Shown: in pieces, positions 524 to 51,353 of the stretch
Position numbering within the stretch: the stretch's first letter is position 1
Layout: each line of letters starts with the position of its first letter
Assembly: GCA_016882195.1 (NCBI GenBank)
Contig: VGLU01000002.1
Location: forward strand, 107,884-171,883
Source: Thermoproteota archaeon
Lineage (GTDB): Archaea; Thermoproteota; Methanomethylicia; Methanomethylicales; Methanomethylicaceae
DNA: 64,000 nucleotides
Direction: 5' to 3'
Made by a program: the position numbers and the translations under genes
Notes under the pieces: generated by a model
Databases searched by the model: none
What the model was told of the DNA's origin: nothing
What the model saw: the letters and a program-made list of their open reading frames with translations, nothing else

Positions 524-862
524 TTATCTTCTCTCGGTTTTAAATATATCCATAACCTTTTCGAATGCTGGCGCCCCCACAACAACATCGGGGATGATTG
601 CCATCTGCATACAGCTCTCTACACATAGATGGCAGTAGAGGCAGCGGAAGGGACTATACTCTATTCTCTTTTCATCTGGAAAAATTTTAATGGCTAATGA
701 GGGGCAGACCCTCTCGCAATCTTGACAAAGGTCGCATTTCTTCATGTCGAAGGTGATCTTTCCCCTGGTCCCAGGCACTGGCTCTGGCTTGACGTATGGA
801 TACCTCACCGTAGCCGGCTTCGTTATCAGGGACTTCAGCACTTTACTAAGCATTTTTGGCAT
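524..862 (-). CDS. echF: Ech-type hydrogenase 2x[4Fe-4S] ferredoxin subunit (EchF/NuoI-like)
   Basis: Two CxxCxxCxxxCP motifs (CDLCQDCERVCP, CLYCHLCVESC). Likely start MPKMLSK with ATG at 860-862. Last gene of the ech operon. Confidence 0.75.
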   Translation of the reverse strand: MPKMLSKVLKSLITKPATVRYPYVKPEPVPGTRGKITFDMKKCDLCQDCERVCPSLAIKIFPDEKRIEYSPFRCLYCHLCVESCMQMAIIPDVVVGAPAFEKVMDIFKTERR

Positions 863-875
863 CTGATCTTCCCTC

Positions 876-1973
876 CTACCGCTCAGTGCACGCAACGCAG
901 GGGTCAACCGAGAGTAATACAGGCGGTATATCCGCCACCTCATGATCAACCAGCATGGTAACAAGCGCGGGAATATTCGCCAGCGTCGGGGTCCGTATCC
1001 TGCACCGCTCAAGTTTGTTCGTGCCATTGCCCGCGACGTAGTAGAAGAGCTCTCCCCTCGGTTGCTCGATCCTAGTAATCGCCGTGCCTCGGGGAAATAC
1101 CGTGTTCTTCTGCAATATTGGACCATTCGGCATCTGGTTTAGCGCTCTATTTATCAGGTCAATGGACTGGTAGATCTCACCAATCCGCACCAGCATGCGG
1201 GAATAGGCATCCTCCATATCATATACCACAGGCTTGAAATCAAGGTATGAGTAGGCTTCGTAACCCAGGGTGCGCATATCCTGGGGGATGCCGCTCCCCC
1301 TAACGGTTGGACCAACGGCTCCCAGAAGGGAGGTTTTGTTCTTGGGAAGGATCCCCTTACCAACCAATCTTGCCTGCACCCCCCTGTCCTTGACGAAGAC
1401 CGGTGCCAGATTGTCCATTCTCTTCTTCAGCTCGGCGAGGCTGGAACGGTACTCGGCTATCAGCCTATCGTCCATGTCTTTTTTGACACCGCCGATGGTG
1501 CACGTTGACAGTTGGATGCGGTGACCAGCGGTTTTTTCATTCAGCCGCAGTACTATCTCCCGGTCTCGCCAAAGGTGCATGAAGAGGCTCTCGAAGCCGA
1601 TGGAATCCACGAACAATCCCAGCCATAGAAGGTGGCTCTGTAGACGCCCGAGCTCTGACCATATCGTGCGCAGGTACTTCGCCCTCTCCGGCACCTCTGT
1701 GTCCGTTATCATCTCTATCGACTCGCAGTAGGCCATGGCGTGCATGAAGTTGCAAATGCCACAGATCCGTTCACAGAGGGTCACATTCCGTTTGTAATCA
1801 TTCAGCTCACATGCCCGCTCCACAGCTCTGTGGACGTAGCCTATATTCGGGACGACGTCCACGATGCGCTCCCCCTCAAACTTGAACCTTAGCTGCACCG
1901 GCTCGGGCAGAACCGGGTGCTGGGGTCCAAAGGGAATGACGGTATTCACATTAACTACTGTGCCTTCATTCAT
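876..1973 (-). CDS. echE: Ech-type [NiFe] hydrogenase large subunit (NuoD/EchE-like)
   Basis: N-terminal RICGICNFMH and C-terminal DPCVACTER, the two CxxC pairs that ligate the NiFe centre. Probable start MNEGTVVNVN with ATG ending at 1973; the ORF track extends further 5' to 2180. Confidence 0.85.
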   Translation of the reverse strand: MNEGTVVNVNTVIPFGPQHPVLPEPVQLRFKFEGERIVDVVPNIGYVHRAVERACELNDYKRNVTLCERICGICNFMHAMAYCESIEMITDTEVPERAKYLRTIWSELGRLQSHLLWLGLFVDSIGFESLFMHLWRDREIVLRLNEKTAGHRIQLSTCTIGGVKKDMDDRLIAEYRSSLAELKKRMDNLAPVFVKDRGVQARLVGKGILPKNKTSLLGAVGPTVRGSGIPQDMRTLGYEAYSYLDFKPVVYDMEDAYSRMLVRIGEIYQSIDLINRALNQMPNGPILQKNTVFPRGTAITRIEQPRGELFYYVAGNGTNKLERCRIRTPTLANIPALVTMLVDHEVADIPPVLLSVDPCVACTER

Positions 1974-3735
1974 TCCAATCGCACCTCCAGCAACGGTTAG
2001 CCTCTTTGGTAGCCTCCTCCTTACTGAAGCCGAGCTCCACCTCATCAAAACTCTTGATCCGCTCAGCCATAGGAAGAACGCGGGTTGGCACTGGTGTCCT
2101 CTCAAGGATCTCTGAGCTCTTACAAGGCTTGCATACCAATTCACCCAAGTCGATGGACGGCTGGGGAAGACCCTTCCCACCGAGATACTTGTCGATGTAC
2201 GAGGCCGCTATTCTTCCGTCCTTGATGCAATCGATGACAGATGTAGGTCCAGTCATGGCGTCCCCGCCTGCCCACACCCCTTGGACACTCGTTTCGTAGG
2301 TCTCTTCATTTACAACAATGCGTCCTGCCTTGTCCACCCTCAAGCCAAAGTCTTTTGGAATCTCGACAGCTTGTCCGATTGCCTTAATGACCGTGTCAAC
2401 CTCCACCACGAATTCGCTGCCTTCTATCGGCACAAATCTGCGTCTACCGCTCTCGTCAGGCTCACCCATCCTCATGTTTTGAAATATGACCTTCAAGGGC
2501 TTGCTAGGAATGATTTTTACTGGTGACCCAAGAAACCTTAAAGAAACCCCTTCCTCCATCGCAGCCTCAACTTGTTCCGGCGTTGCAGGCATCTCTTCCC
2601 GCGATCTTCTATAGAAGATGGTAACATCTTTGGAGCCAAGCCGCTTCGCCATCCTCGCGGCGTCTACAGCACCGTTTCCACCACCTATTACGGCGACTCG
2701 ATCGCCCAGTTCAGGCCTTTCATTATGAACATTTACGGCAAAGAGAAAATTCACGCATTCAAGCACACCAGGAGAATCCTCTCCCTCAACCATGAGCCTC
2801 ATGCTCTTCCAGGCCCCAGTGCCGACGTAGATCGCGTCGAAACCCTTCTTGAACAACGCGTCCAAGTTGGTAATCTCAACTCCAGTTTCGAGTTTAACGC
2901 CCGCCTCCTCGAACCGCGCCATTACTTCTGCCTCTAGAATATTCCTGGGCAACCTGTACTTCGGTATGAACACAAACATCGCGCCCCCGCACCGCTCCAG
3001 CTTCTCGTAGACCGTTACGCTGTGCCCGAGCATCCCAAGGTAGAATGCGGCTGTTATGCCCGAGGGTCCCGCTCCTACCACCGCAACTTTTTTGCCAGTC
3101 GGCTCCATCCTCTTTACGTCGCGTTTAAGGCTACTCAACGCATCCGCCGCGTACCTCTTCAACAGCCGATTCTGTAGAGGTTTATCGTTTTTGTCCTGCC
3201 TACACCCCTCCTCGCACGGAGCAAAGCAGACTCTTCCGAGGATTGCGGGCAGGGGTGCCTGTTCTATAACCGTGTTGTAGGCTCCCTCGGGATCGCCCAA
3301 TGCTGTCTGCCGGACATATTTCGGGACGTTCACCATGGCTGGGCACTTCTCGCGGCACCTACCGAAGAACCTCATAATCGGAGGGCACTCGCCAACAACA
3401 GGCTTCAGCAGAGTCGTGGCGGACGCCGACTCCACCTTTAACATCCTGCCACCGTAATCCACATTGAGGCCTGAGATCTTGAGATTGAACAGGTCTTGTG
3501 CCTCGTTTTCGGCGATGAAGGCCGCGCTGTAGACGCCGGTGATACTGGATAACGGCTCTTCCTTATCGGTCCTCATTTTAAGATTAATAACCTCCCTTCC
3601 CTTCTCGAAGTGGTAAATCACCTCGAGCTGTTTGCCCAAATCAAGAACTGTTATGGTGAGAAATCTGGCGTCCTCCGCTCTGAGCTTGTCCAACTCTGCG
3701 AAAATGCTCGCCTTGTCGGTCAATATTTCCTGCAT
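1966..3735 (-). CDS. Fusion protein: NuoC/EchD-like domain (N-terminal ~120 aa) plus GltD/NfnB/SudA-like FAD- and NAD(P)H-binding iron-sulfur oxidoreductase (~470 aa)
   Basis: N-terminus MQEILTDK...LTITVLDLGKQLEVIYHF matches the NuoC 30 kDa family. The remainder has a Cys-rich Fe-S region (GECPP...CREKCP...CFAPCEEGC) followed by VAVVGAGPSGITAAFYL and VAVIGGGNGAVDAA dinucleotide-binding motifs, as in glutamate synthase small chain / NfnB. Start ATG ends at 3735. Confidence 0.8.
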   Translation of the reverse strand: MQEILTDKASIFAELDKLRAEDARFLTITVLDLGKQLEVIYHFEKGREVINLKMRTDKEEPLSSITGVYSAAFIAENEAQDLFNLKISGLNVDYGGRMLKVESASATTLLKPVVGECPPIMRFFGRCREKCPAMVNVPKYVRQTALGDPEGAYNTVIEQAPLPAILGRVCFAPCEEGCRQDKNDKPLQNRLLKRYAADALSSLKRDVKRMEPTGKKVAVVGAGPSGITAAFYLGMLGHSVTVYEKLERCGGAMFVFIPKYRLPRNILEAEVMARFEEAGVKLETGVEITNLDALFKKGFDAIYVGTGAWKSMRLMVEGEDSPGVLECVNFLFAVNVHNERPELGDRVAVIGGGNGAVDAARMAKRLGSKDVTIFYRRSREEMPATPEQVEAAMEEGVSLRFLGSPVKIIPSKPLKVIFQNMRMGEPDESGRRRFVPIEGSEFVVEVDTVIKAIGQAVEIPKDFGLRVDKAGRIVVNEETYETSVQGVWAGGDAMTGPTSVIDCIKDGRIAASYIDKYLGGKGLPQPSIDLGELVCKPCKSSEILERTPVPTRVLPMAERIKSFDEVELGFSKEEATKEANRCWRCDWNE

Positions 3736-3736
3736 T

Positions 3737-4183
3737 TTATCTCCCCTCAACCTTTTTCTTGCCCTTCTCGGCAAGCTTCTGCAGGCCAAGTATGAAGCCA
3801 TCGATGATCTGCTCAGGACGAGCGGCACAGCCGGGCACGTAGACATCCACAGGGACCACCTTATCCACGCCGCCAAGCACGTTCGGGCAGTTGTAGAAGA
3901 CACCGCCTGTGGATCCGCATGAACCCACAACGATTACAACTTTAGTTTCAGGCATCTGATCATAGAGGTTCTTTAGGACTCTGAAGTTTCTTCTGTTCGC
4001 CGGGCCAGTAACAAGCAGCACATCCGCCTGCTTGGGGTTACCTATGTTTATGATCCCAAAACGCTCAACATCAAATCTTGGCGCCAGGGCTGCCAGGATT
4101 TCAATATCGCAACCATTGCAGCTTCCGCAGTTGAAGTGTAGAACCCAAGGGGACTTGACCCTGGCCTTGTTCATTATGTCCAT
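3737..4183 (-). CDS. echC: Ech-type hydrogenase small subunit (NuoB/EchC-like)
   Basis: NCGSCNGCDIE and GSCGSTGG...VYVPGCAARP motifs of NuoB/hydrogenase-3 small subunit. GGAGGGG RBS ahead of ATG at 4181-4183. Confidence 0.8.
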   Translation of the reverse strand: MDIMNKARVKSPWVLHFNCGSCNGCDIEILAALAPRFDVERFGIINIGNPKQADVLLVTGPANRRNFRVLKNLYDQMPETKVVIVVGSCGSTGGVFYNCPNVLGGVDKVVPVDVYVPGCAARPEQIIDGFILGLQKLAEKGKKKVEGR

Positions 4184-4184
4184 C

Positions 4185-5057
4185 TCAGACCCCTCCCAAG
4201 AGAAATAGGGCAACGAGGTTTGCCAAGATCAGCGTGAAACCAAAGGTCCAGGTCGTCTTCAGCATCCTCTGCCACGTAAGTCTAGGATAGATGTTGTCAA
4301 CGACAAGGGAGACGAAGAATAGAAGGAGGGCCAGCCCAACCCCAATTAGTAAGTTCGGTGCCCAGAAGTATGCCATTATAGACAGTATGAGCATCATCTT
4401 GACCCAATGCCCCAGCTCGACCATCGCCATCGTATAGCCAGAGAACTCGGTGAAGACGCCGCGCACTATCTCCTGATGGGCGTGCATAGACGCAGAGATA
4501 TCGAATGGAGACTTCTTCATCTCTACAATAAGCACAAACCCCATGGCGACGAATACCCCGGGAAGAAGCAGGAGCAATGGATATGCCAAGGAGAATATGC
4601 CTCCTACGAGGAAGCTGCGCGTTGCAAAGTAGATGCTGATGATGGACATTATCATAACAGGCTCATATGACAACACCGATAGAAGCTCTCTCATCCCTCC
4701 TATGTGGCTATATGGCGACTTTGAGTTGAAGCTGGCAGCTACTAGGCAGACGTCTGCCGTGGCAACTGTGAATAGCAGCAGTAGTAGATCCAGCCTGAAA
4801 ACCAAAATTGCTGCAGCCATCAGCGAAAAGCCCAAATACCCGAAGGCAAGAACAGGCTGAAACTGGCTGGTGATGAACGGTTTCTTCCCCCAGAGCTTTA
4901 TGACATCATAAAAGGGCTGAAGAACCGGGGGACCGATTCTGCTCTGCATGTGCGCAGTGATCTTCCTATCGATGCCCCTGAGTAATCCTCCAATGAAGGG
5001 AAAGGCCGCCAAGAGCAGCACGGGGAGGGCATAGCTCAATACTGGATCGGGCATCAA
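4185..5057 (-). CDS. echB: Ech-type hydrogenase membrane subunit (NuoH/EchB-like)
   Basis: GIDRKITAHMQSRIGPP motif of the NuoH/HycD family; multi-TM protein. Confidence 0.8.
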   Translation of the reverse strand: MMPDPVLSYALPVLLLAAFPFIGGLLRGIDRKITAHMQSRIGPPVLQPFYDVIKLWGKKPFITSQFQPVLAFGYLGFSLMAAAILVFRLDLLLLLFTVATADVCLVAASFNSKSPYSHIGGMRELLSVLSYEPVMIMSIISIYFATRSFLVGGIFSLAYPLLLLLPGVFVAMGFVLIVEMKKSPFDISASMHAHQEIVRGVFTEFSGYTMAMVELGHWVKMMLILSIMAYFWAPNLLIGVGLALLLFFVSLVVDNIYPRLTWQRMLKTTWTFGFTLILANLVALFLLGGV

Positions 5058-7015
5058 AACATCACCATCAAAAACAGTAGCGCCAACAGTAGCGTCCCTC
5101 CAACCAGAGCGTATTTGTTCAAACGCCCCTCGCCTATTGAATCGAAGGACATTACGGAGACCTGAAATTCGGCCTCTGTGTCAGCCATAGTCCTGAACGC
5201 CGAGGGGTTACCCTCAACGTTCTCCCCTCCCAAGAAGGGCGGTTTCACAACGCCGCCCTTAGATTTTGCTACCGCAAAGCCAGCGATGAAAATAACCCCT
5301 ACTGCAAGCCAAAAAAGCAAGACTGGGAATGAGCCGATGGTGGTGTTTATGCTGAACAGCGGAGCCCCGATTTGAACAGAATAGCCTCCTCCAACGGTTG
5401 GGTTAACGAGATTGCTGATAAAGAAGGCTGCACCCACGCTGATGAAAAGATCTAATGACAGCAAACTCAGCAGAGAGAGCAGATAGGGGGGATGAAGTTT
5501 TTCGGCCCTCAGTTTCGTTTCTTTTACGGGAAGAATTATGAGACGTCCCAACCACCTTGCCCAGAAAAGAGTTGTAGTAGCGCTACCGATGACCATAAAA
5601 ATGATTAATAAAAATACTATTGAAGGCGGTGATGAAGCGATAACTTCCAGAGCCGCCCACTTACCGAGCAGCATGCCGAATGGGGGCAAGAACATGCTTA
5701 TCATCCCAACAATCATTATGATCGCTGTCAGCGGAAACCTTCCCAGAAGCCCCTCCCAACTCTCTATGTTCTGGCTGTGCAACCGGTTCTCAACCACGCC
5801 GGCTCCCATGAATAACAACCCTTTCGAAATTGCGTGAAATAGAAGCAGGATTAGTGCTGCCGAGTACGCTAGCGGCGTGTTTAATCCTGCGCACAATATG
5901 ATTAGACCGAGGTTGCTGATTGTGGAATAGGCTAGAATTCTCTTGGAACCCCTTTGGCTAATCGCCAACACCGCTGTTAGCATGAAGGTAAAAGCACCCA
6001 CGAGGACGACGGCCCACGTTAAATGAGTGTCCTTGATCGCGGGTGCGATCCTCAAGATCAGATAGACACCGGCATTCACCATCGTGCTTGCGTGGAGGAG
6101 AGCTGAGACCGGTGTGGGGGCAACCATTGCGCCCAGAAGCCAGCCATGAAATGGGAACTGGGCTGACTTTGTGAATGCCGCCAATGCCATAAAGGCGAAG
6201 CTGAGCAGGAGTATGGGCGCCGCGCCGGCCATGAGCAGTTCGTTAAGGGCTATGCTTCCAATGGCGTAGTAGCTAACGAAAAGCGAGGCGCTCAGGGCGA
6301 CCCCCCCCGTGAGATTCATCCAAAGGGCAACCGCGGCATTTTTCTCGGCCTCCTTTGTCCTATCGTGTCTTATGAGTTCATAGCAGCAAAGAGTAGTAAC
6401 CTCCCAGAAGAAGGCTAGCCAGAGGATATTGTTGGAGTATATTAGGCCGTTCATGGCACCAAGGAAGAGCAGCAGGAAGAAGAAAAACCTGGGTTGCCTG
6501 CTCCTCGAAAGCTGTAAAATTTCTTCATGTTCATCCATGTAGCTCAGAGCATAGACGCATATCATAGAACCCACAATGTTCACAATCAGGCTCATGAAAA
6601 TGGAGAGGTTGTCCACCATCAGAGCTGGCTCGACACTGACTCCAATTGCGGAATACTCGAAGTATGCGACGAGCAAGATCTGTAGCAGAGTAAGTCCGAT
6701 TACCAAGACGTTCTTTATCCTGAACCCTACATACAGAAAGTATGCTACCAAACAGAAGCCGAGGATAAGTGCACTCATCTCAACTAGGTAATTTGGAGAG
6801 TAGACGAAACCTCCACTGTAGAACAGCAGAAGAGAAGAGGCGATTAATGAGGCGGCCATGATGGCGATTATGGCTCTTCTGATGCCTCTCCCAGTTAGTC
6901 CTAGGCATGCTAACCCCATGATCAAGGGCAGGAGCACGTTTGTTGCTACAATGAGTTCGCCATACATCCAAACAACACCGAATAATTTGAAATGTCTATA
7001 CCGTTCTTTACACAA
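5054..7015 (-). CDS. echA: Ech-type hydrogenase antiporter-like membrane subunit (NuoL/MnhA/EchA-like)
   Basis: 653-aa polytopic membrane protein with NuoL/Mrp-antiporter-like helices. First gene of the ech operon. Confidence 0.75.
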   Translation of the reverse strand: MCKERYRHFKLFGVVWMYGELIVATNVLLPLIMGLACLGLTGRGIRRAIIAIMAASLIASSLLLFYSGGFVYSPNYLVEMSALILGFCLVAYFLYVGFRIKNVLVIGLTLLQILLVAYFEYSAIGVSVEPALMVDNLSIFMSLIVNIVGSMICVYALSYMDEHEEILQLSRSRQPRFFFFLLLFLGAMNGLIYSNNILWLAFFWEVTTLCCYELIRHDRTKEAEKNAAVALWMNLTGGVALSASLFVSYYAIGSIALNELLMAGAAPILLLSFAFMALAAFTKSAQFPFHGWLLGAMVAPTPVSALLHASTMVNAGVYLILRIAPAIKDTHLTWAVVLVGAFTFMLTAVLAISQRGSKRILAYSTISNLGLIILCAGLNTPLAYSAALILLLFHAISKGLLFMGAGVVENRLHSQNIESWEGLLGRFPLTAIIMIVGMISMFLPPFGMLLGKWAALEVIASSPPSIVFLLIIFMVIGSATTTLFWARWLGRLIILPVKETKLRAEKLHPPYLLSLLSLLSLDLFISVGAAFFISNLVNPTVGGGYSVQIGAPLFSINTTIGSFPVLLFWLAVGVIFIAGFAVAKSKGGVVKPPFLGGENVEGNPSAFRTMADTEAEFQVSVMSFDSIGEGRLNKYALVGGTLLLALLFLMVMF

Positions 7016-7055: not shown

Positions 7056-7292
7056 TCACTTCTTACCCAAGATCTTTGGACCTGGGGGAACCGTCCCGGG
7101 ACCTACAATGGAGTTGGTGACTATGGCGAAGCTCGTATACGCTGCGCACCCGGCGGTGAGGAAGCCGATGTAACCACCCAGTTGCGTCAGGCCTGCGTTT
7201 GCGAAGCTCAGCAGGAAGGCCGTGAATGCGAATGCCGCCAGCCCGAGCGGTGCTGGGTCGGCCAGTGGAGCCTTCTCCATTGGGCTACTCAT
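7056..7292 (-). pseudogene. Truncated SatP/YaaH (GPR1/FUN34) acetate-transporter-like ORF, 78 aa versus ~190 aa expected
   Basis: ADPAPLGLAAFAFT matches the N-P-[AV]-P-[LF]-G-L-x-[GSA]-F family signature, with N replaced by D. Only about 2 TM helices, then a Pro/Gly-rich tail. The downstream echA starts at 7015, so there is no room for the remaining helices. Confidence 0.45.
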
Positions 7293-9259
7293 TACTTAGT
7301 CGCCCCCATCTCCTCTATACTGCGCATTTCGGCCTTGAACTCTTCATAAGCCTTCTTTGCCTCTTCCACGCTGGTTGCGTCCTCGAGCGTCGTTGTATCA
7401 CCGATGCTCCTTTCTTCTACGACCGCCCCTATTACCCTCCTCATTATCTTGCCGCTGCGGGTTTTTGGCAGTTTGTTGACAAAGTAAAGCGACTGTGGGG
7501 CAGCTATCGGTCCGATGCTCTGCCTAATGTGGTTAACAAGCTCGGTTCTCAATTGTGGTGAGGCAACATGCCCCGGCCTGAGTATGACAAAGGCAACAGG
7601 GACCTGCATCTTTATCGGATCAGCCTTACCTATTACTGCAGACTCCGCCACGGCGGGGTGCGATATCAGTGCATCCTCCAGCTCGATGGTCCCGATCCTG
7701 TGACCTGCCACCTTGAGCACCTCATCTGCCCTGCCTAGTAGCCAGAAGTAGCCGTCCTCGTCCTTCATGGCGAAGTCTCCAGGGTAGTAGAAGCCAGGGA
7801 ACTTGGTGAAGTAGGTGCTCTTGAACCTCTCGTGGTCGCCCCACAGGGTTATGAACTGGCCTGGCCATGGCTTCCTTATCACGAGCAGCCCCTTCTCGTT
7901 GGGCTTGGCTATCCTTCTATCCTCGGTGTACACATCAGCGTCCACTCCCGGCAAGGGGAAGGTGGCTGAACCCGGTTTGAGCGGGACGAGTGCAAGACCA
8001 GGCTGAGGGGTGATCATGATCCCGCCCGTCTCGGTCTGCCACCAGGTGTCGACTATTGGGGTCCTTTCGCGACCTATGTACTTGTAGTACCAGTTCCATG
8101 CCTCGGGGTTGATGGGCTCGCCGACGGTACCGAGTATCCTGAGGGTGGAGAGGTCGTGTTTCTTAGCCCACTCCTCTCCGTACTTCATGTGCATTCTTAT
8201 TGAAGTGGGGGAGGTGTAAAAGATGGTGATTCCGTACCTCTCAACCATGTCCCACCACCTGTCTGGATGGGGGTAGTCGGGAGCACCCTCGTATAAGAAA
8301 GAGGTGACGCCGCTGATCAATGGACCGTAAACGATGTAGGTGTGACCGGTGATCCAACCGATATCTGCGGCGCACCAGTAAATGTCTTTGTCATTTACGT
8401 CAAATACCACCTTCTGGGTGAAGTCGGCCCAAACCATGTAACCCGCGGTGCCGTGCGTGGCCCCCTTCGGCTTCCCAGTTGTACCAGAGGTATAAAGGAT
8501 GAAGCTGGGGTGTGTCCCCTCAAGCCTCTCGGGCTCAACGTATGGGTCGGCGGACCCGACCAATTCGTGGTACCACATGTCTCTATCCTCCACCATGTTG
8601 ATCAGGTTGTGCCCTCTCCTCACAGCCAAGACCTTCTCTACTGTAGTGGTATGCTTGAGCGCTTCGTCCACGACCGCTTTGAGCTCAACGGTTTTGCCTC
8701 GCCTGTAACCTTCGTCAGCCGTTATGATCATTTTACTCTGTGAGTCGTTGACTCTATCAGCGATTGCCTGGGAGGTGAAGCCCGCGAATATAACGGAGTG
8801 GATCGCCCCAATCCTGACAGCCGCGAGCATACTGATCACCAACTCAGGGATCATGGGCATATATATCGTCACCCTGTCTCCCTTCCTTACCCCAAGCCTC
8901 TTGAGGATCGACGAAAACCTGTTTACTTCTCTGAATAGATCATAGTAGGTTAGAGTCCGCTTGTCTCCATTCTCTCCCTCCCAGTAGAAGGCCACCTTGT
9001 TCTTTCTCCAACTCCCCACATGCCGGTCCAATGCGTTGTATGAGATGTTTGTCCTCCTTATCGGGAACCACTTGGCGTATGGAGGCTCATCGATGGGCTG
9101 ATACGCGGGGCCATTTTTTTCGTACCAGAAGAGGTCATCAGCAAATTTCTGCCAGAAGGTCTCTGGGTCCTGTAAACTCTGCTTATGAACATCCTTCAGG
9201 ATGTTTACATCGGGATGAATAGTCCTCGATGTGGGCAGGACACCTAAAATTTTATCCAA
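7292..9259 (-). CDS. acs: Acetyl-CoA synthetase (AMP-forming)
   Basis: YTSGTTGKPKG, WWQTETGG, YYPGDFA and PKTRSGKIMRR motifs; 655 aa. Confidence 0.9.
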   Translation of the reverse strand: MDKILGVLPTSRTIHPDVNILKDVHKQSLQDPETFWQKFADDLFWYEKNGPAYQPIDEPPYAKWFPIRRTNISYNALDRHVGSWRKNKVAFYWEGENGDKRTLTYYDLFREVNRFSSILKRLGVRKGDRVTIYMPMIPELVISMLAAVRIGAIHSVIFAGFTSQAIADRVNDSQSKMIITADEGYRRGKTVELKAVVDEALKHTTTVEKVLAVRRGHNLINMVEDRDMWYHELVGSADPYVEPERLEGTHPSFILYTSGTTGKPKGATHGTAGYMVWADFTQKVVFDVNDKDIYWCAADIGWITGHTYIVYGPLISGVTSFLYEGAPDYPHPDRWWDMVERYGITIFYTSPTSIRMHMKYGEEWAKKHDLSTLRILGTVGEPINPEAWNWYYKYIGRERTPIVDTWWQTETGGIMITPQPGLALVPLKPGSATFPLPGVDADVYTEDRRIAKPNEKGLLVIRKPWPGQFITLWGDHERFKSTYFTKFPGFYYPGDFAMKDEDGYFWLLGRADEVLKVAGHRIGTIELEDALISHPAVAESAVIGKADPIKMQVPVAFVILRPGHVASPQLRTELVNHIRQSIGPIAAPQSLYFVNKLPKTRSGKIMRRVIGAVVEERSIGDTTTLEDATSVEEAKKAYEEFKAEMRSIEEMGATK

Positions 9260-9436
9260 TACTCATCACCCTTATCTTTTACCGGCGGTTGCCGGACTCA
9301 GACTTTGTGTCGGCAATTTTCGCATCCGAAGCCTTCTGTTTACAGAACAGCAAAATTTCGTTTAATCGTAGGTACATTTCCTTTGCCATAGGTCGAACCC
9401 TGCGTTGTCATACTATATAAACGTTTTCTGCAATTT

Positions 9437-9456
9437 ATAATTATAAATAATTACAA
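9437..9456. promoter_or_regulatory. Tandem direct repeat ATAATTATAA-ATAATTACAA in the divergent acs / usp-actP promoter region
   Basis: Two abutting copies of the 10-mer ATAATTAYAA. The same pair recurs at 14175-14200. Confidence 0.4.
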
Positions 9457-9587
9457 TCATTGATAATGTTTATATACTCAAAGAAATACGCTTTTCGGTA
9501 CTATGACTAAGAACGTATTTCCAAAATTAAGTGTATTCTTTCCATTAATAAGGAGAGATTACCTGATTAAAGAGGCGGCAAAAGTCT

Positions 9588-10325
9588 ATGGCTAAAGGAG
9601 CATATCGTATCCTTTTACCGACCGATGGCTCCATTCCTGCCCTGGCAGCGACAAAACATGCGGTGGAGCTGGTAAAGAAGATGGGCGGGCGGTTGATAGT
9701 GCTTACGGTAAAGGAGCCGAAGCCGATGATGCCGCTGGAGAGGCTGGCAGAGGACACAGTCCTGATGAGAGCCGAGAGGTTCGATGGGATCGAATACGCC
9801 AAGAGGCTGGCGGACCAGGAGAATGTAGCCATCGAGCTGCAGATCCGAGAGGGTTCTGTGGCGGGCGAGATAATCAAGACCGCGGAGGAGCTGGATGTGG
9901 ATATGATTGTCATGGGAAGCTCCAACCCCAAGGGGCTTTCTGGCTTCTTCTTGGGGCACATCGCCGACGCTGTGATCAAGGCTACGCCCATCTCGGTAAC
10001 GGTCATCAAGCCCAACCAAAAGGACATCCTTTCAATTAAGGAAAATGCACGCGCCTTCATAGTACCGACCGTGGAGCCGGTGGCTCCGAGGGTCGGAGAC
10101 GGGATGAAATTCAAAGTTGGATTGGCACTCTTCTTTGCGTACGCACTTGGATACATGGGCTACACCGTTTTGGGCGCCTTCAATAAGGCGATTCTGTCCA
10201 TAAGGTTAATGGGAATAAACTTGGGCCTCATCGGCGGGATGACATTGATCTTTTCAGCAATACTGATAGCGGTCATGTACAATTGGTACGCCAGCCGACT
10301 GGAAAAACGATCGGGGATTGCTTGA
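9588..10325 (+). CDS. Universal stress protein (UspA) domain fused to DUF485/YjcH-like two-TM membrane domain
   Basis: N-terminal USP fold (ILLPTDGS...MIVMGSS...GHIADAVIK). C-terminal two helices and YNWYASRLEKR resemble YjcH, the small protein that precedes actP in bacteria. Overlaps the next ORF by 8 nt. Confidence 0.6.
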   Translation: MAKGAYRILLPTDGSIPALAATKHAVELVKKMGGRLIVLTVKEPKPMMPLERLAEDTVLMRAERFDGIEYAKRLADQENVAIELQIREGSVAGEIIKTAEELDVDMIVMGSSNPKGLSGFFLGHIADAVIKATPISVTVIKPNQKDILSIKENARAFIVPTVEPVAPRVGDGMKFKVGLALFFAYALGYMGYTVLGAFNKAILSIRLMGINLGLIGGMTLIFSAILIAVMYNWYASRLEKRSGIA

Positions 10326-11811
10326 TATGGATTATAGCTTCCAGCCGCTTGCATTTGCACTATTCGTAGTGATCACAGCGATAACCCTCTTTATCTCGGT
10401 GCTGGCAGCACGCAGAATACGGACGGCAAGCCACTATTACGTCGCAGGTGGAGGCGTGAAGTGGTTTGTGAATGGGATCGCCTTCGCCGGGGACTACCTT
10501 AGCGCAGCCTCGTTTCTTGGAATAGCCGGGTTGATCGCCTTCTTCGGTTTTGATGGATTCATGTACTCCATCGGCTTCCTTGCTGGGTGGATAGTTGCGC
10601 TGCTGCTGATTGCAGAGTCGTTCCGGCGAATCGGCAGGTTCACGCTCGCGGATGCACTAGTACACCGGTTCAAGAGCAAAAGGGTTCGACTCGCCGCGGC
10701 CGTGAGCACCCTTACGGTCAGCATCTTTTATCTGATCCCGCAGATGGTTGGTGCCGGTTCGATAATCCAACCGTTGATAGGCCTACCATACGAGGTTGGG
10801 GTGGTTGTCATCGGTGCCATCGTCATCCTAATAGTTGCGACTGCTGGAATGGTCTCCACAACCTACGTGCAGTTCATCAAGGGCTTTCTGCTTCTGTTCG
10901 CCGCGTTCGGTCTGACAATCGGGGTATTGATCGTTTCGGGCTACGGACCAGTTGACTTCGTCTCTAACATAATCTCGAATCCAGAGATTGTGACACCTAA
11001 GGGTGCCGTGGTCTCAGGAGAGGTCTTCATGTCCCCAGGTTTGAAATTTAAGAACCCTCTGGACTTTGCGTCCTTGGCGCTTGCCCTCTTTCTGGGCACG
11101 GCGGCACTCCCACACATACTCATTAGATACTACACGGTGCCTAGCCCCTCAGATGCCAGGAAGTCCACGGTAATAGCGATAGGCGCCATAGGGGCATTTT
11201 ACATACTGACGTTATTCCTCGGTCTGGGTGCCCTATACTTCCGCACGTTCGATCCCGCAAATGAGAACCTGTCCGCACCATTGCTGGCGCAGTTCATAGG
11301 TGGCGAGGCCTTCTTTGCGCTGATCTCCTCCATAGCCTTCGCGACCATACTCGGGACGGTGGCCGGTCTCCTAATGGCCGCAGCGGGCGCCATAGCCCAC
11401 GACATATATACCGAATATCTTGGCAAAAATAAAAGGGGAACCAACACCCTCAGAATATCAAAAGTTACGGCTGTAGGTGTAGGAGTCATAGCAATTGTCT
11501 TGGGCGTTCTTTCCAAGGGTCAGAATGTTGCCTTCCTTGTGGGTCTGGCCTTTGCCATCGCCGCCTCCGCGAACCTGCCTGCCATAATATGTGTGCTGTT
11601 CTGGAGCAAGACGAGTGAACGGGCTATCCTCGGGGGCATCGCTACTGGCCTCATATCCTCCATAGCCCTAATCCTTGTCAGCCCCACATTGATGGGAACC
11701 AGTGCACTGTTCGCATTGAACAACCCGGGGATCGTGAGCATACCCCTTGGGTTTGCTGTGACAATTGTGGTTTCACTCTTGGATGGCAAGAAGGGGCAGC
11801 AAGCAAAATAA
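10318..11811 (+). CDS. actP: Sodium:solute symporter family, ActP-like cation/acetate symporter
   Basis: 497-aa SSS-family protein (YYVAGGGV...GDYLSAASFLG). Gene order DUF485-ActP as in bacterial yjcH-actP. Confidence 0.75.
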   Translation: MLDMDYSFQPLAFALFVVITAITLFISVLAARRIRTASHYYVAGGGVKWFVNGIAFAGDYLSAASFLGIAGLIAFFGFDGFMYSIGFLAGWIVALLLIAESFRRIGRFTLADALVHRFKSKRVRLAAAVSTLTVSIFYLIPQMVGAGSIIQPLIGLPYEVGVVVIGAIVILIVATAGMVSTTYVQFIKGFLLLFAAFGLTIGVLIVSGYGPVDFVSNIISNPEIVTPKGAVVSGEVFMSPGLKFKNPLDFASLALALFLGTAALPHILIRYYTVPSPSDARKSTVIAIGAIGAFYILTLFLGLGALYFRTFDPANENLSAPLLAQFIGGEAFFALISSIAFATILGTVAGLLMAAAGAIAHDIYTEYLGKNKRGTNTLRISKVTAVGVGVIAIVLGVLSKGQNVAFLVGLAFAIAASANLPAIICVLFWSKTSERAILGGIATGLISSIALILVSPTLMGTSALFALNNPGIVSIPLGFAVTIVVSLLDGKKGQQAK

Positions 11812-14330: not shown

Positions 14331-17300
14331 ATGGCATGCGCCGGCAGTAAAAGTCCTCCAAGGCTCGGTCGTGGAACGCACCTTGCTTATATTGCGCCCC
14401 TATTCCTTCTCTTCATAATCTCATTTACGGTCCTGCCCCCTAACCAAGTATTAGTTAGCTGCAACCCGAACGTATCCGCCTCAGAATCAGGTATCATTGC
14501 AAGATATACTGTTGAGATAACTCCTGCCGGGGCGGCCAAGCACGAGGTAAGCGTAAAGGCGGTGATCTCTCTCGGTGTAGCGACCGACCTTACGGTCACT
14601 TCACCAGATCAGGGGTTCAAGGCAAGGTGGATCACCATAGAGAAGTGCTACGACAGCACCAACAGGACAGTCTCGATCGAGCAGGTTGACAACAGGACAT
14701 GGAGGGTGTCTCCCCCCTCCCCCGGCGAGGTCACAATCGAGTACACCGCGTGCGCCGACATACCCAGCTCCATGGCGGTGGGATATTACCTGACGTACCT
14801 CTCGGAGAGCTGTGGGCTGCTGTACGCCAGCGCGATAATTCTCCGCCCGCCCACTCAGGGCGAGGTCGCGGTCAACTTTATAATGCCGTCCGGCTGGTCT
14901 GTAATAGCCGACGAGACGTGGTCTCCTGTCAACTCCACTGCCTTCACCGTCGGGACTGGTGACTTGGAGCTATTCGCCCCTGGCAACTGGTCCGTCTACA
15001 ACGGTACCTTCGGCGACAGCCAGAGGCTAAGGGTCGCGATCTGCGGGACGACAAAGCATGACAAAGGCGTTTACCTCAACAGCATAAAGACATGCTTGGA
15101 CTACTTCCACCAGCACATCGGGAAACTTCCCCAAGAGGAGCTCAATGTGGTGCTAGCAGACCTCCCTCTGCCCATGGACTACATGAGCGGGACGCCGAGG
15201 CTGGCCGTGAACCGCGCCGGCGGTGACTGGGGGATGTTCGAGGGGATGCTCTGGCACTACTGGTTCTTGAGATCGGTGCGCTACGACAGCCAGCTCGACC
15301 AGGACAGGGCGTGGTGGTTCGGCGAGGCGGCGAGCCCCTTCCTGCTCTATCCAGTCTATGAGGCGATAGGGGGGGCTTCGGAAGTCGCGACCGCCTGGGG
15401 CTTCAAGTACAATAACCTCACCTGGAAGAACTGGTACGTGGTGTACGAACAGTACGTAGGAACCAACTACAACATACCACTGGTGGACTACCCGGCGAAG
15501 AACAGGGAGACAGGCGACGTGCAGTACTACTTCCCATTGCCCTACATGAAGGGGTTCTTGGTGTTGCAGATGCTCAACCTCTCGATGGTAGAGGTGACCC
15601 ACGGTACCAAAGACATAAGGGATCTCGTGAAGTACATCTACGAGAACTACGCGGCGAAGGGCATAGGCTACAAGATCGAGGACGTCCTCAATGCGGTAAA
15701 TACCGTGTCCGGAAATAACTACACGGCATTCTTCGAGGCCTACGTATACGGTAATGAGACGCTGCCCATTCTGGAGAAGAGCGGTGACTACCTCTTTGAC
15801 TGGTCGACGTTGGGCGACAAGGCGTACAGAAGCCTCGCAAACACAGAGAAGGCACGGCCTACGCCCCAATATTGGCACGGTCAGGCCCCAGAGGGAGAGA
15901 CGGCAACACTCTTGGAGATGAAGAAGGAGAGCCAGCACTTCACGATCTACTTCCACCAGCAGGATGCTAAGATGGCTGCTCTCCTCCTGTTGGACTCCGA
16001 GAAGGCCTACGATGCCGTCACAAAGATCTATGGAGGCGAGGAGAAGCTCAAGATCAAGATGTTCATGACCTACAACAGTACCGAGTACGCCATACTCGGG
16101 GGCAACCCCAGCGCGGTCTACGACGAGTTCACAAGCGCAGGCGGGGTGGCGGTGGAGGCTGGCGACGAGATAAACTGGCTCAGGCCCATCCCAGACAGAA
16201 CGCAAACGCAGATGTATGATGTGGCAGCCCCCATCCACGAGCTGGGGCACGCCCTCCTGCGCCAAGTTTACCCCAACGTGTACAAGAACTGGGAGCAGTG
16301 GTTCAATGAGGGGATGCCCCTCTCCGAGATGGCATGGCTCGACAGCATGTGGGCTCCAGAAAGCTACTCCCCCTTCGGCGACCATGAGCCCATAAGGCAA
16401 CTTCAGACCTCGCTGATAGGCGGTTCGCCGTCCGTCATAGCGTTAACCCAGCTGGCGAAGATGGACTACGGCTCACTCAACTCCTCCGAGCAGCTACTGT
16501 TTCAGGGGGAGGGCATAACCTTCCACTTCTACATAGTGGCTAGGTACGATAATGGCCTGCAGAGGTTGCTCACTGAGTACAACAGAAGCGTGCCGCTCAG
16601 CATGGCCGCGGAGAGGGCCTTCGGAATAACCTACACAGACCTTGAGAGTGAGCTGTGGGTCACGGCGGAGAGGGCGGCTCTCCGTGTAAACTCCACCGAT
16701 GCGGTCGTCTCAAGAATAAACGGCGAAGGGGTGGACACCGGGCTTGCCGAGAGTTTGAAGCCAGAGGAGCCCTTCCTTGCGTTGCTGGTCGCGTATGCGT
16801 CGGAGACGAAGGCTGGCGTCGGTCCTGAAAAGGTGTTGTTGGGAACCATAGTTCCAGGTAGTTGGACGAGAGCAGACCTGCAAAAGACCGCAATAACGTC
16901 GCTGAACGTGAGTTCAACACAAACAGCCGCGAATGTAACGGTCTTGGTCCAAGAGGTGACGCCTGATGAGATGCCGGCAACCGCTACCGGCGAGGTTTAC
17001 CGGTACATCGAGATGACGGCGAGTGAAGGTGTTGGCCCCGCCATGATAACGTTCAAGGTTGCTAGGGCATGGGTAAACGAACACAGCACGAACAACGCAT
17101 CCATCACCTTAGAGAGGTACGTCTCAAACGATTGGGTCTTACTTTCCACCAAGAAAATCGGTGAAGACGGCGCGTACGCCTACTTCTCCGCGGAATCGCC
17201 GGGGCTGTCAACCTTCTCCATAGCCTCTGTTTCGCCTGCTGATCTGATACTGCCAAACAAAAAGGAGACGGCACACTTCATCTTTTATTTCAACACAACA

Positions 17301-27147: not shown

Positions 27148-27247
27148 GCGGGGGTTCCCTAGCCAGGTTAAAGGGGAAGGACTCAAGATCTGAAGATGGG
27201 TTATCCTTTGGCGTAGGCCTTCGAGGGTTCAAATCCCTCCCCCCGCA
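27148..27247 (+). tRNA. tRNA-Leu (anticodon CAA), class II, with 15-nt intron (27188-27202) after position 37
   Basis: GCGGGGG/CCCCCGC acceptor, D-stem CCCT/AGGG, anticodon stem AAGGA/TCCTT interrupted by ATCTGAAGATGGGTT, 14-nt variable arm, T-loop TTCAAAT. Confidence 0.7.
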
Positions 27248-41641: not shown

Positions 41642-42118
41642 TCATTGCAACCTCCCCGCATAGATGCCCCTTGAATATACCGACTTCATCTCGGGCCACT
41701 GGACGAAGAACAGGTCGGCGAACCTGTATATGATCTTCCCGGATGTGGAACCTTTGTATACCCTGGACCAACTCTCCACAAAGACAACCTTCTTACCAAA
41801 GATCTTGCCGATCATGGATATGGGCACAGCCATCCCCGGACCCGCGCTGAGTATGACCTCTGGCTTGGTTCTCCTAACGACCCCGAGCGACTCCCAAAAC
41901 AGCCTAATCGCCTTGAAGAAGGTAACTATGACGTTGTCGCCATGATTTCTCGCCCTGTGGACGACGCAGATCTCCCCCTTTCTGGCTATCTTCTCTGCTG
42001 AGAGTTTGTCCCCCTTGCCCACAAGGTAGACGTACTCGAACCTCTCCCCCAGCAGATCAACAAGCTTTAGCATCTGGGCCGTGTGCCCGCCGCTGCCTAG
42101 AACTACAAGGATCTTCAA
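41642..42118 (-). CDS. Alg14-like membrane-anchoring glycosyltransferase subunit
   Basis: VVLGSGGHTAQML signature. Confidence 0.7.
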   Translation of the reverse strand: MKILVVLGSGGHTAQMLKLVDLLGERFEYVYLVGKGDKLSAEKIARKGEICVVHRARNHGDNVIVTFFKAIRLFWESLGVVRRTKPEVILSAGPGMAVPISMIGKIFGKKVVFVESWSRVYKGSTSGKIIYRFADLFFVQWPEMKSVYSRGIYAGRLQ

Positions 42119-42124
42119 GTCGCT

Positions 42125-43234
42125 TCACGGGTTCTTCTTAGTCTTCTTTATTATCTCAGCCATCCTGTCCAAGTCTTTCTCTGTTACAGCGGGGTTAACA
42201 GGCAGAGATAGCACTGTCTGGGCCGCCCTCTCCGACGCGGGTAGCTTCAATGTTCCGTAGCCGAGGCCTGCATAGAGGGGGATTCTGTGGACCGGTGTCG
42301 GGTAATAAACAGTTGCCCCTATCCCTCCCTCTAGGAGCCTCGACATGAATCTCTCCCTCTCCGCTGCCGTTTTGCACCTAACCGTGAATAGATACCAATT
42401 ATGCCTGCAATACTCTGGTACCTCTGGCAGCACTAACCCTGCCCCATCCAGTTTTTCCTTCAGCGCATTTGCGTTCCTAGCCCTCGCTGCGAGAAAGCCT
42501 GGAAGCTTCTTCAGCTGCGCCCTACCTATGGCTGCCTCTATCTCCGGCATCCTGAAATTTCCGCCGAGGATCACGGAGTCGTTGCCCTTCACCTGGCCGT
42601 GCGTCCTTATCCTCCCCAGCTTCTCGGCCAGCGCATCGTCGTCCGTTATTATCGCGCCCCCCTCCCCAGTGGTCATTACCTTTGTCGGGTAGAAGCTGAG
42701 GCAGCCTATGTCTCCCAAGGTCCCCGCCATCCTTCCCCTGTAGGAGGCTCCTAGGGCTTGGCAGGCGTCCTCTATAACCGTGATCCCGTGCTCCTCGGCA
42801 ATCTCCCCAATCTCATCCATCTCGGCAGGAAGACCGTACAGGTCAACGGGGATCACTGCCTTTGTCCTCTTGGTTATCACCTTCTTGAAGGCCCTTGGCA
42901 TCATGTTGTAGCTACTCAGGTCGATGTCCACAAAGACAGGCTTTGCCCCGGCTAAGACGGCGGCACCCGCGGTGGCCGCAAAGGTAAAGGATGGCATGAC
43001 CACCTCGTCCCCTAGCCTGATCCCCGATGCCAAGAGCGCCGTGTGGAGGGCAGCCGTCCCTGAGTTGACCGCAACAACATGCCTCGCGTTAAGGTGTCTC
43101 GCCAGCTCCCTCTCGAAGGCCCTGACATTCGGCCCGCCCTCAGGGGAGGAGTTCGTCATGATGCCGCCCTCTATAACCTTCAGAACCCCCTCCTTCTCCT
43201 CAACCCCGAGCAATGGCTTGTTTATTGGCAGCAT
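42125..43234 (-). CDS. DegT/DnrJ/EryC1/StrS family PLP-dependent sugar aminotransferase (WbpE-like)
   Basis: PLP-fold, ~370 aa, conserved Lys region (SFYPTKVMTTGEGG). Confidence 0.8.
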   Translation of the reverse strand: MLPINKPLLGVEEKEGVLKVIEGGIMTNSSPEGGPNVRAFERELARHLNARHVVAVNSGTAALHTALLASGIRLGDEVVMPSFTFAATAGAAVLAGAKPVFVDIDLSSYNMMPRAFKKVITKRTKAVIPVDLYGLPAEMDEIGEIAEEHGITVIEDACQALGASYRGRMAGTLGDIGCLSFYPTKVMTTGEGGAIITDDDALAEKLGRIRTHGQVKGNDSVILGGNFRMPEIEAAIGRAQLKKLPGFLAARARNANALKEKLDGAGLVLPEVPEYCRHNWYLFTVRCKTAAERERFMSRLLEGGIGATVYYPTPVHRIPLYAGLGYGTLKLPASERAAQTVLSLPVNPAVTEKDLDRMAEIIKKTKKNP

Positions 43235-43283
43235 TGCCGCTCACACGGGATAAATTGTCCTGTCTACCTATTAATCGTTTGAG

Positions 43284-43982: not shown

Positions 43983-44036
43983 CCCTTCTCGCGTCAGGGA
44001 GATTCTCTATCCGATCTTATTTATAAAAAAGGCGTT

Positions 44037-46303: not shown

Positions 46304-46362
46304 CGCTTAAAAGATGTCGGCGTATACCCTTAAATACATTCTTTAACTCTACCTTTTACAAT

Positions 46363-47382: not shown

Positions 47383-47451
47383 AAGGCATTTCTAACTCAT
47401 TACACGCGAAAGGCCTTGCCCCTAAAGTTTGGTCATTAACCAGCGCTGGCT

Positions 47452-51342: not shown

Positions 51343-51353
51343 CTTTCTCCCTC

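Follow-up and report, generated by a model that had tools for sequence, protein, structure and literature searches.

Which redox partner does an Ech-type [NiFe] hydrogenase serve once its EchD subunit has become part of a flavoprotein? The question is raised by an operon in a stretch of archaeal DNA from the family Methanomethylicaceae (Thermoproteota; GenBank assembly GCA_016882195.1, contig VGLU01000002.1, positions 107,884 to 171,883), a stretch of 64,000 nucleotides (nt) that is called the window throughout. Six genes lie there in the order echA-B-C-[D-fusion]-E-F (524-6967, minus strand) and, where Ech complexes have a small, free-standing and cofactor-free EchD, the corresponding domain runs on in one open reading frame (ORF) into a flavoprotein of 470 amino acids (aa). 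Hydrogenases linked to nicotinamide adenine dinucleotide or its phosphate, NAD(P), are well known, as soluble enzymes. From homology and gene context we propose that the operon encodes a candidate six-subunit Ech-type H2:NADP+ oxidoreductase, reversible and chemiosmotically coupled, in which a GltD/NfnB-type module with flavin adenine dinucleotide (FAD), an NADP(H) site and two [4Fe-4S] clusters would form a C-terminal extension of the otherwise cofactor-free EchD; on balance we lean, by a modest degree, towards this reading.

All subunits that make up an Ech-type complex, namely the NuoL-, NuoH-, NuoB-, NuoC-, NuoD- and NuoI-like ones, were matched by Pfam in the order echABCDEF (Table 1), which confirms the six co-oriented echA-F-like genes claimed in an earlier interpretation made without database searches (hereafter the sequence-only reading). 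The genes nearly abut one another: the echB start overlaps the echA stop codon, the echB stop and the echC ATG are 1 nt apart, as are the echC stop and the fusion ATG, the last 8 nt of the fusion gene also belong to echE (ATGAATGA), and a gap of 13 nt separates echE from echF. This junction spacing is typical of one operon, and start codons within it are preceded by GGAGG-like motifs. The ATG of echC at 4183, for instance, has GGAGGGG ahead of it; a longer ORF with a TTG start extends to 4213, and echC was also called as 148 aa in L066-L069, four loci of the window's own lineage.

The fusion gene is a single ORF without an internal stop, and the Complex1_30kDa, Fer4_20 and Pyr_redox_2 domains of its product all score over their Pfam gathering cut-offs, as expected from the NuoC-like N-terminus and the GltD/NfnB module that the sequence-only reading had recognised in it. 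Residues 1-125 were aligned end to end with the free 139-aa EchD of a canonical Chloroflexi ech operon, and the EchD homology reaches residue ~112, where TLLKP stands opposite LLRER-stop of the Chloroflexi protein. Since this homology takes in the C-terminal tail, the entire EchD has been kept in the fusion. Only ~10 residues then lie between the end of EchD and C127, the first cluster ligand, and with a whole EchD and so short a spacer the flavoprotein would be fixed in place on the complex. The junction residues G115, P118 and R122 are kept in at least 90% of 32 aligned homologues. In an AlphaFold2 single-chain model (mean predicted local distance difference test score, pLDDT, of 87.9) two confident domains are linked by a low-confidence tail, with pLDDT values of ~77-92 at aa 1-90, ~40 at aa 91-120 and >90 in the Rossmann region; the low confidence over aa 91-120 would suit a tail that folds only on a partner subunit.

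Canonical GltD and NfnB proteins carry their cysteines as an N-terminal CxxC...C...CP motif followed by CxxxCxxxC. In the alignment of 32 homologues C127, C131, C170, C174, C178, C582 and C585 of the fusion are invariant, and these seven residues correspond to the complete GltD/NfnB ligand set for two predicted [4Fe-4S] clusters, in a permuted order with the first CxxC at the C-terminus. In BLASTP against the canonical NfnB-like protein of a related locus, residues 59-475 of that protein match aa 126-523 of the fusion, and its residues 28-55 match aa 558-585 (E 2e-6). Likewise, aa 544-586 align with residues 6-46 of Pyrococcus furiosus NfnI-L and aa 556-586 with residues 13-43 of Thermotoga maritima NfnB. 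Because the canonical N-terminal CxxC region aligns at the C-terminus of the fusion, the module is a circular permutant. The CxxC...CxxC tail reported in the sequence-only reading thus stands in one half, the invariant C582/C585, and falls in the other, as C543 and C546 (CKPC) are, like C117, found only in the window sequence. An extra Fe-S cluster in the C-terminal tail is ruled out, CKPC being unconserved and RCWRC being the permuted canonical pair.

The nucleotide-binding motifs of the module are equally well preserved. Both the FAD motif (G221xG223xxG226) and the second nucleotide motif (G351xG353xxA356, then Y375-R376-R377) are invariant or nearly so, and the conserved R261 occupies the position of R201 in P. 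furiosus NfnI-L; in the literature GxGxxA is read as NADP(H)-specific and the equivalent Arg as tuning the flavin potential (PMC7483475). Over aa 124-587 the fusion matches the NCBIfam models PRK12814 (E 1.3e-125) and PRK12771 (E 1e-121), in both cases under the curated cut-offs.

In sequence, the flavoprotein half most resembles the NADPH-oxidising domains of StnC and the NfnABC large subunits. The best solved relative is the NfnABC large subunit of Caldicellulosiruptor (9bov_A, 354 bits), followed by that of Thermococcus sibiricus (9n5u_A, 335 bits) and by StnC of the Sporomusa ovata StnABC complex (8oh5_C, 314 bits), all of which rank ahead of NfnB, GltD and dihydropyrimidine dehydrogenase (DPD). 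The Foldseek order is the same, with a probability of 1.00 also to NfnB, GltD and DPD. Alignments to the NfnABC/StnC chains begin at about residue 104 and continue past RCxxC; these proteins therefore share the permutation, with another N-terminal domain in the place of EchD. Recombinant StnC binds FAD and oxidises NADPH (PMC7483475), and with these nearest relatives the claim of the sequence-only reading, a candidate NAD(P)(H)-coupled energy-converting hydrogenase, is supported as that of a candidate.

Further features shared with StnC and the NfnABC large subunits are the permuted GltD topology, an RCxxC that follows the flavin domains, and the motifs for NADP(H) and FAD. However, those proteins begin with a [2Fe-2S]-type domain where EchD stands here, and they carry a NuoG/formate-dehydrogenase-like C-terminal domain, whereas the fusion ends four residues after RCWRC. 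They also belong, with NuoE/F-like partners, to soluble bifurcating transhydrogenases, and there are no NuoE/F genes in this operon. With NfnB, SudA and GltD (5jca_L, 4ylf_B, 6s6s_G) the fusion shares the Fer4_20 plus Pyr_redox_2 fold at 35-38% identity, the Arg near the FAD and the seven Cys ligands, but in those proteins the first CxxC is N-terminal and the partner is NfnA or GltB, while here the order is permuted and the operon holds no such partner. In a library of 1.84 billion representatives clustered at 50% identity, only ~5 were full-length fusions, and the next-best ones had only aa 124-587 in common with the query. Elsewhere the permuted module is joined to dihydroorotate dehydrogenase-like, old yellow enzyme, ferredoxin-type, SdhB-like and molybdopterin domains; given so many fusion partners, it appears to be a widely reused NAD(P)H:Fe-S plug-in, for which EchD is one more partner.

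The hydrogenase core to which this module is attached retains the features of an active enzyme. Both NiFe-ligating motifs of EchE that the sequence-only reading listed are present and intact (L1, RICGICNFMH; L2, DPCVACTER). A scan of one genome per species of the GTDB, with ORFs called in the loci and searched with the six window proteins, returned 62 species-level loci with the fusion, and among the 60 EchE ORFs recovered from them L1 is present in 57 and L2 in 56. Among the misses, the ORFs of L013, L014, L028 and L054 break off at a contig end, and L050 and L062 have H for R in L1 (HVCGICNFMH); every EchE that is complete at the respective position, type II (see below) included, has intact NiFe motifs. 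Cys32, 35, 99 and 129 of EchC (ORF numbering), the ligands of the proximal [4Fe-4S] cluster, are kept in 50-51 of 51 loci, and all 8 EchF Cys, for two predicted [4Fe-4S] clusters, in 56 of 56 sequences. In the membrane part, comparison of EchA with MrpA (7qru_A, 6z16_A) shows that the Glu of transmembrane helix (TM) 5 (FWEVT), the Lys of TM7 (TKSAQFPFH), the His of TM8 (LLHAST) and the Lys of TM12 (HAISKG) are kept. A non-hydrogenase relative of the Mbx/Mbs/Ehr type is ruled out, all four NiFe Cys being present and conserved, and this conservation excludes an Mbx/Ehr-like loss of H2 chemistry.

The best solved relatives of EchE are MbhL (6cfw_L, 240 bits) and HycE (7z0s_E, 208 bits). EchE identity is at least 60% for fusion operons, and then drops to ~56% for a large group of 359-aa proteins, a Chloroflexi member of which sits in a canonical echABCDEF operon with the free 139-aa EchD. 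Compared with this Chloroflexi/Dehalococcoidales operon (L063), the window has 74% identity in EchC and 56% in EchE; these values mark the core as an ordinary Ech and the fused and unfused forms as close kin. Pairwise identities place the fused archaeal, fused bacterial and unfused Chloroflexi forms about equidistant from one another, and homologues are named 'ech hydrogenase subunit E' by the Joint Genome Institute. The EchE proteins differ in their C-termini: that of the window stops exactly at DPCVACTER, as do those of L048, L050 and L062, and most family members have 7-10 further residues after TER. This suggests that maturation by a C-terminal endopeptidase would be needed by some EchE members and not by that of the window.

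The fusion family is compact in sequence and widespread in genomes. A search of 5.8 billion proteins yielded >120 clusters of 583-607 aa and 52-94% identity, nearly all with the same three Pfam domains. The 62 loci belong mostly to Bathyarchaeia, including Hecatellales, and otherwise to Methanomethylicus, Korarchaeum, one 'Nitrososphaerales' bin and a few bins labelled bacteria; an Odinarchaeia contig has the same gene arrangement. In this survey of gene neighbourhoods, which the sequence-only reading had suggested, the fusion lies between echC and echE-echF in 62 of 62 loci, and echA-echB stand upstream wherever the contig reaches, except in five loci (type II). A divergent fusion operon in L050 (44% identity, EchE of 359 aa) shares its contig with a gene for ClpX; L050 is therefore bacterial, and the fusion, with one bacterial lineage among its carriers, is not confined to archaea. 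Databases name the homologues 'FAD-dependent oxidoreductase', 'GltD-like' or 'hypothetical protein' rather than annotating them routinely as a ferredoxin-only variant of Ech, and the window fusion itself is a 'hypothetical protein' at NCBI (MBM5804810.1), where a different start gives 626 aa.

The five type II loci (L029, L030, L034, L037 and L040) consist of echC, the fusion, echE and an 88-aa echF. In L029, L030 and L034, flanks of up to 7.5 kb upstream and 6 kb downstream contain no echA or echB; those of L037 and L040 are shorter. Each of them shares a metagenome-assembled genome (MAG) with a type I operon (L029 with L033, L030 with L049, L034 with L055, L037 with L025 and L040 with L058). 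Type II operons may specify a soluble hydrogenase that is linked to NADP(H) and descends from a group-4 enzyme.

Table 1. Coordinates of the operon, of the parts of the fusion protein and of further features, in the window unless a locus is named.
Feature	Position	Strand	Description
echA	5054-6967	minus	637 aa, NuoL/MrpA-like antiporter-type membrane subunit; PF00361 E 7.9e-51 and PF00662
echB	4185-5057	minus	290 aa, NuoH-like membrane subunit; PF00146 E 6.6e-43
echC	3737-4183	minus	148 aa, NuoB-like hydrogenase small subunit; PF01058 E 8.1e-29
EchD-GltD fusion	1966-3735	minus	589 aa, single ORF
echE	876-1973	minus	365 aa, NuoD-like [NiFe] large subunit; PF00346 E 6.2e-57 and PF00374
echF	524-862	minus	112 aa, NuoI-like, predicted 2x[4Fe-4S]; Fer4_7, Fer4_10 and Fer4 matches
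Fusion aa 1-112	3400-3735	minus	complete EchD/NuoC (30 kDa) domain including C-terminal tail; Complex1_30kDa (PF00329) at aa 7-89, E 3.6e-9
Fusion aa 113-123	3367-3399	minus	short spacer from the EchD-homologous part to the Fe-S domain (alignments)
Fusion aa 124-205	3121-3366	minus	Fer4_20 Fe-S domain (PF14691) at aa 126-200, E 4.5e-21, 75 bits; invariant C127, C131, C170, C174, C178
Fusion aa 206-523	2167-3120	minus	FAD and NADP(H) Rossmann domains; Pyr_redox_2 (PF07992) at aa 215-507, E 7.7e-29, 101 bits
Fusion aa 524-589 and stop	1966-2166	minus	C-terminal segment ending in RCWRCDWNE; permuted first CxxC of the GltD cluster motif
Seventh co-oriented gene	1-491	minus	thioredoxin-reductase-like flavoprotein, TTG start at 491, truncated by the window edge
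Acetate uptake/activation cluster	7056-11811		adjoins the operon
AMP-forming acetyl-CoA synthetase	7292-9259		acetate cluster
Usp-DUF485 (YjcH-like) fusion	9588-10325		acetate cluster
ActP-like sodium:solute symporter	10318-11811		acetate cluster
1612-aa ORF	14331-19169	plus	bacterial Ig-like domain and weak Peptidase_MA_2 match
tRNA	27148-27247	plus	100 nt, Rfam (42 bits)
Sugar/glycosyltransferase block	42000-60000		see text
Type II operon	L029 7525-11142		echC, fusion, echE, 88-aa echF
Small upstream proteins	L029 6784-7164, 7133-7516		two conserved proteins of ~125 aa
Small upstream proteins, fused	L001 3865-4551		one 228-aa ORF
Split echA	L068 6770-8682		called as two genes (224 and 422 aa)
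Neighbourhood in one group of Bathyarchaeia (NfnA/NfnB/glutamate dehydrogenase; HdrA-MvhD/CCG-domain), examples	L008 1971-2873; L011 569-2005; L014 2985-4364; L011 12586-14946; L046 15265-16155		

In the proposed H2:NADP+ oxidoreductase, NADPH would pass a hydride to the FAD, from which single electrons would travel through the module's two [4Fe-4S] clusters, the EchF clusters and the proximal cluster of EchC to the [NiFe] site in EchE. The path would be reversible, leading from H2 to NADP+, and turnover would be coupled to ion movement via EchA and EchB. Through its EchD part the flavoprotein would be permanently tethered to the peripheral arm, comparable to the NuoEFG module on complex I. 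We infer the docking geometry, the use of NADPH over NADH, the physiological direction and the ion coupling from sequence features. The standard potentials (E0') of H+/H2 and NADP+/NADPH are -414 mV and -320 mV, respectively, and reduction of NADP+ by H2 would therefore yield ~-18 kJ/mol, enough for roughly one translocated ion; the reverse reaction, from NADPH to H2, is feasible at low H2 pressure. Somewhat more tentatively than the reaction itself, and a little short of an even chance, we suggest that the complex may be an unrecognised type of energy-conserving or energy-consuming site, an Ech-type ion pump working on the ~90 mV span between H2 and NADPH, in which the GltD-type flavoprotein would correspond to the N-module of complex I but have evolved independently of it.

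Several observations weigh against this proposal. The assignment of NADPH rather than NADH has a basis in motifs only, and the five type II loci without echA and echB indicate that the redox module apparently exists without the ion-translocating part. Pfam searches of the 44 larger window ORFs outside the operon found no hyp maturation genes, and no nfnA or other hydrogenase-related genes either; hyp genes may lie elsewhere in the genome, of which a 64-kb sample says little. Finally, EchF, the usual entry point of ferredoxin, is kept unchanged, and ferredoxin may remain a substrate, possibly the main one.

This last point leads to the alternative that survives best, which we nevertheless consider unlikely: ferredoxin would enter at EchF and the flavoprotein would be a second port, the complex acting either as a ferredoxin:NADP+ oxidoreductase with ion pumping (Rnf- or Mbx-like) or as an enzyme in which reduced ferredoxin and NADPH both feed H2 formation, with the [NiFe] site as an overflow valve. 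Such a role would fit the retention of all 8 Cys in EchF and a core sharing 56-74% identity with canonical Ech, a presumed ferredoxin-dependent enzyme. In mbx-like operons, the gltD-like flavoprotein has been put forward as the place where a ferredoxin-oxidising complex reduces NAD(P)+ (PMC4758237). In addition, nfnAB-like genes and a glutamate dehydrogenase gene adjoin the operon in 10-12 Bathyarchaeia loci, which ties the locus to the balancing of ferredoxin and NADPH. However, this neighbourhood fits an H2:NADP+ oxidoreductase equally well, with H2 reducing NADP+ and Nfn then passing electrons from NADPH to ferredoxin and NADH. Against two ports speak the NiFe ligands, which, unlike in Mbx/Ehr, are strictly conserved in all members, and EchF itself, which is down to 88 aa in type II; no ferredoxin-binding surface is identifiable in the sequences.

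A flavin-based bifurcation or confurcation at the NfnB-like FAD, with the electrons of NADPH split between the Fe-S chain of the hydrogenase and a high-potential acceptor, is improbable. In its favour, bifurcation takes place at the FAD of NfnB, a homologue of the module, the module keeps the Arg to which tuning of the low-potential semiquinone is attributed (R261, equivalent to R201 of NfnI-L; PMC7483475), and an electron split at the FAD of StnC has been proposed in the same study of the Stn complex (PMC7483475). What makes bifurcation less likely is that tblastn with an NfnA-like query found no NfnA-type partner ([2Fe-2S] plus a second FAD) in the operon or window; the NfnA-like genes near some of the homologous loci come with their own canonical NfnB. 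Moreover, the GltD of glutamate synthase has the same fold and functions without bifurcation.

We give marginally less weight still to a flavoprotein that is no substrate port at all and would instead be a redox sensor or regulator, an assembly scaffold or a site for another acceptor such as polysulfide (SudA-like). Its function is read from homology only, and sulfide dehydrogenase activity has been assigned to SudA/NfnB homologues (PMC11631310, PMC7483475); a non-catalytic role is nonetheless hard to reconcile with FAD, NADP(H), seven-ligand and Arg motifs that are near-invariant over 52-94% identity, and all characterised relatives of the permuted module are NAD(P)H:Fe-S oxidoreductase domains. 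An artefact (misassembly, frameshift or a wrong gene call joining two genes), for which the MAG source and the deviating 626-aa NCBI start might be cited, is refuted by recurrence across genomes, since the ORF is continuous, a stop or frameshift between the NuoC-like and GltD-like parts was looked for and is absent, an identical 589-aa protein occurs on 10 contigs from several samples, and the fusion recurs with a conserved junction in 62 genomes and >120 clusters.

How far does the proposed enzyme depart from known systems? With the canonical six-subunit Ech of the Methanosarcina barkeri or Thermoanaerobacter kivui type it shares gene order, subunit sizes, NiFe and Fe-S ligands and the NuoL-/NuoH-like subunits. 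It differs in that the canonical EchD is a free subunit of ~120-140 aa without cofactor, to which the fusion adds 470 aa predicted to hold FAD, NADP(H) and 2x[4Fe-4S], and in that canonical Ech is known only as ferredoxin-dependent. The P. furiosus Mbh (6cfw) and Escherichia coli formate hydrogenlyase (7z0s) have the same type of peripheral arm and provide the closest solved catalytic subunits; Mbh, however, has a Mrp-type sodium module and 14 subunits, and formate hydrogenlyase receives electrons from formate dehydrogenase via HycB/HycF and has its NuoC domain fused to NuoD, not to a flavoprotein. The N-module of complex I (NuoEFG) is comparable by analogy only, as a pyridine-nucleotide, flavin and Fe-S input on a NuoB/D-type core, its FMN (flavin mononucleotide) subunit NuoF being unrelated. 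The NAD(P)-linked hydrogenases of [NiFe] groups 3b/3d and [FeFe] group A2 are soluble and unrelated or use an unrelated flavoprotein (HoxF), and none is a group-4 membrane enzyme with an EchD-GltD fusion; HydDB defines [FeFe] group A2 by a GltD-like neighbour.

The nearest precedent is found in the mbx-like operons of Thermotoga and some proteobacteria (Degli Esposti 2015, PMC4758237), in which a GltD-type flavoprotein likewise accompanies a complex of the complex-I/group-4 type as a proposed NAD(P)+ site. According to that study (PMC4758237), the flavoprotein has a gene of its own there and reportedly takes the place of NuoI, and the NuoD homologue, with only vestigial NiFe Cys, is no hydrogenase, whereas here the flavoprotein is fused to EchD, EchF is kept and the NiFe site is intact. 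Because of this Thermotoga gltD-like precedent, a pyridine-nucleotide module on a group-4-type complex is not wholly new; what is new is the covalent attachment of a putative substrate module to an Ech, and the architecture is not categorically new. No description of an EchD/NuoC-GltD fusion was found in the full-text searchable literature, beyond whose reach most subscription-journal papers lie, in agreement with the sequence-only reading, which knew of no description of this architecture. Related archaeal enzymes have been assigned to ferredoxin: HydDB lists a Bathyarchaeota group 4g enzyme as predicted ferredoxin-coupled, Loh et al. 2021, whose subject is another enzyme (Hfo, with 11 subunits), note the lack of any characterised 4g enzyme and presume the group to be ferredoxin-dependent, and a Bathyarchaeota survey lists a 4e enzyme as 'ferredoxin-coupled, Ech-type'.

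Such assignments matter for models of sediment metabolism. Bathyarchaeia rank among the most abundant archaea of anoxic sediments, and all that is known of their energy metabolism comes from genomes. Metabolic reconstructions classify the large subunit alone and arrive at 'ferredoxin-coupled, Ech-type' or 'group 4g, unknown', and the fused gene may be scored apart from it as gltD, sud or nfn. If the H2:NADP+ proposal is correct, the predicted electron flow would run between H2 and NADPH rather than between H2 and ferredoxin, the predicted energy yield and the conditions of H2 production and consumption would change, and 'ferredoxin-coupled Ech' entries would be mis-assigned in models of Bathyarchaeia, Methanomethylicia, Korarchaeia and Odinarchaeia. 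In that case the NADPH pool would be filled by H2, or emptied into it, directly at the membrane, and in loci with nfnAB alongside, Nfn would relay the electrons to ferredoxin. The complex I superfamily would also have gained another electron-input module, beside NuoEFG, FpoF and direct docking of ferredoxin, and would have done so by gene fusion to its NuoC-like subunit. The architecture is conserved over several major uncultured archaeal lineages and is at odds with the default annotation in metabolic models; as the fusion narrows the question to one clearly defined protein, the proposal lends itself to direct testing.

Further observations concern the surroundings of the operon. A seventh co-oriented gene begins 33 nt past the echF stop and encodes a thioredoxin-reductase-like flavoprotein, the full copy of which in L068 is 311 aa long and scores 303 bits against TIGR01292, under the cut-off of 343. 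The protein has HRREQFRS, an NADPH-type HRRxxxR motif, and SLTCD where the CxxC redox disulfide is expected. This gene was not found beside the operon in the 62 loci, being seen only in L066-L069, and the flavoprotein is at most a possible part of the enzyme. The L068 contig encodes an identical fusion protein, and its echA, one intact ORF in the window, was called as two genes; this split is a frameshift or sequencing error.

Two small conserved proteins of ~125 aa are encoded directly upstream on the same strand in 17 of the 62 loci, of both type I and type II, and are fused into one ORF in L001. They had no Pfam match and were absent from the window by tblastn; possible roles are those of an assembly factor, a regulator or an additional subunit. 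Among the Bathyarchaeia there is one group in which genes for an NfnA-like protein, a canonical, non-permuted NfnB/GltD-like protein and glutamate dehydrogenase lie divergently upstream of the operon (10-12 loci), and downstream of it, in 7-8 loci, are an HdrA-MvhD fusion and a CCG-domain (HdrB-like) protein.

On the other side of the window operon stands a cluster for acetate uptake and activation, which holds a 78-aa remnant of a Gpr1/Fun34/YaaH (SatP-type) channel, an acetyl-CoA (coenzyme A) synthetase of the type that forms adenosine monophosphate (AMP), a Usp-DUF485 fusion and an ActP-like symporter. An acetyl-CoA synthetase gene is also found near the canonical Chloroflexi ech locus L063. 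Farther along the window, the 100-nt tRNA detected by Rfam was not reported by ARAGORN and is consistent with an intron-containing archaeal tRNA. The 1612-aa ORF, in which the Ig-like and Peptidase_MA_2 matches are the only ones, may encode a large secreted or surface protease-like protein. Finally, the block between 42 and 60 kb comprises genes for DegT aminotransferases, epimerases, UDP (uridine diphosphate)-glucose dehydrogenase, GT1, GT2 and GT4 glycosyltransferases, methyltransferases and a B12-radical SAM (S-adenosylmethionine) enzyme, with a G+C content that falls to 0.43-0.49 from ~46 kb onwards, and looks like a variable surface-glycan island.

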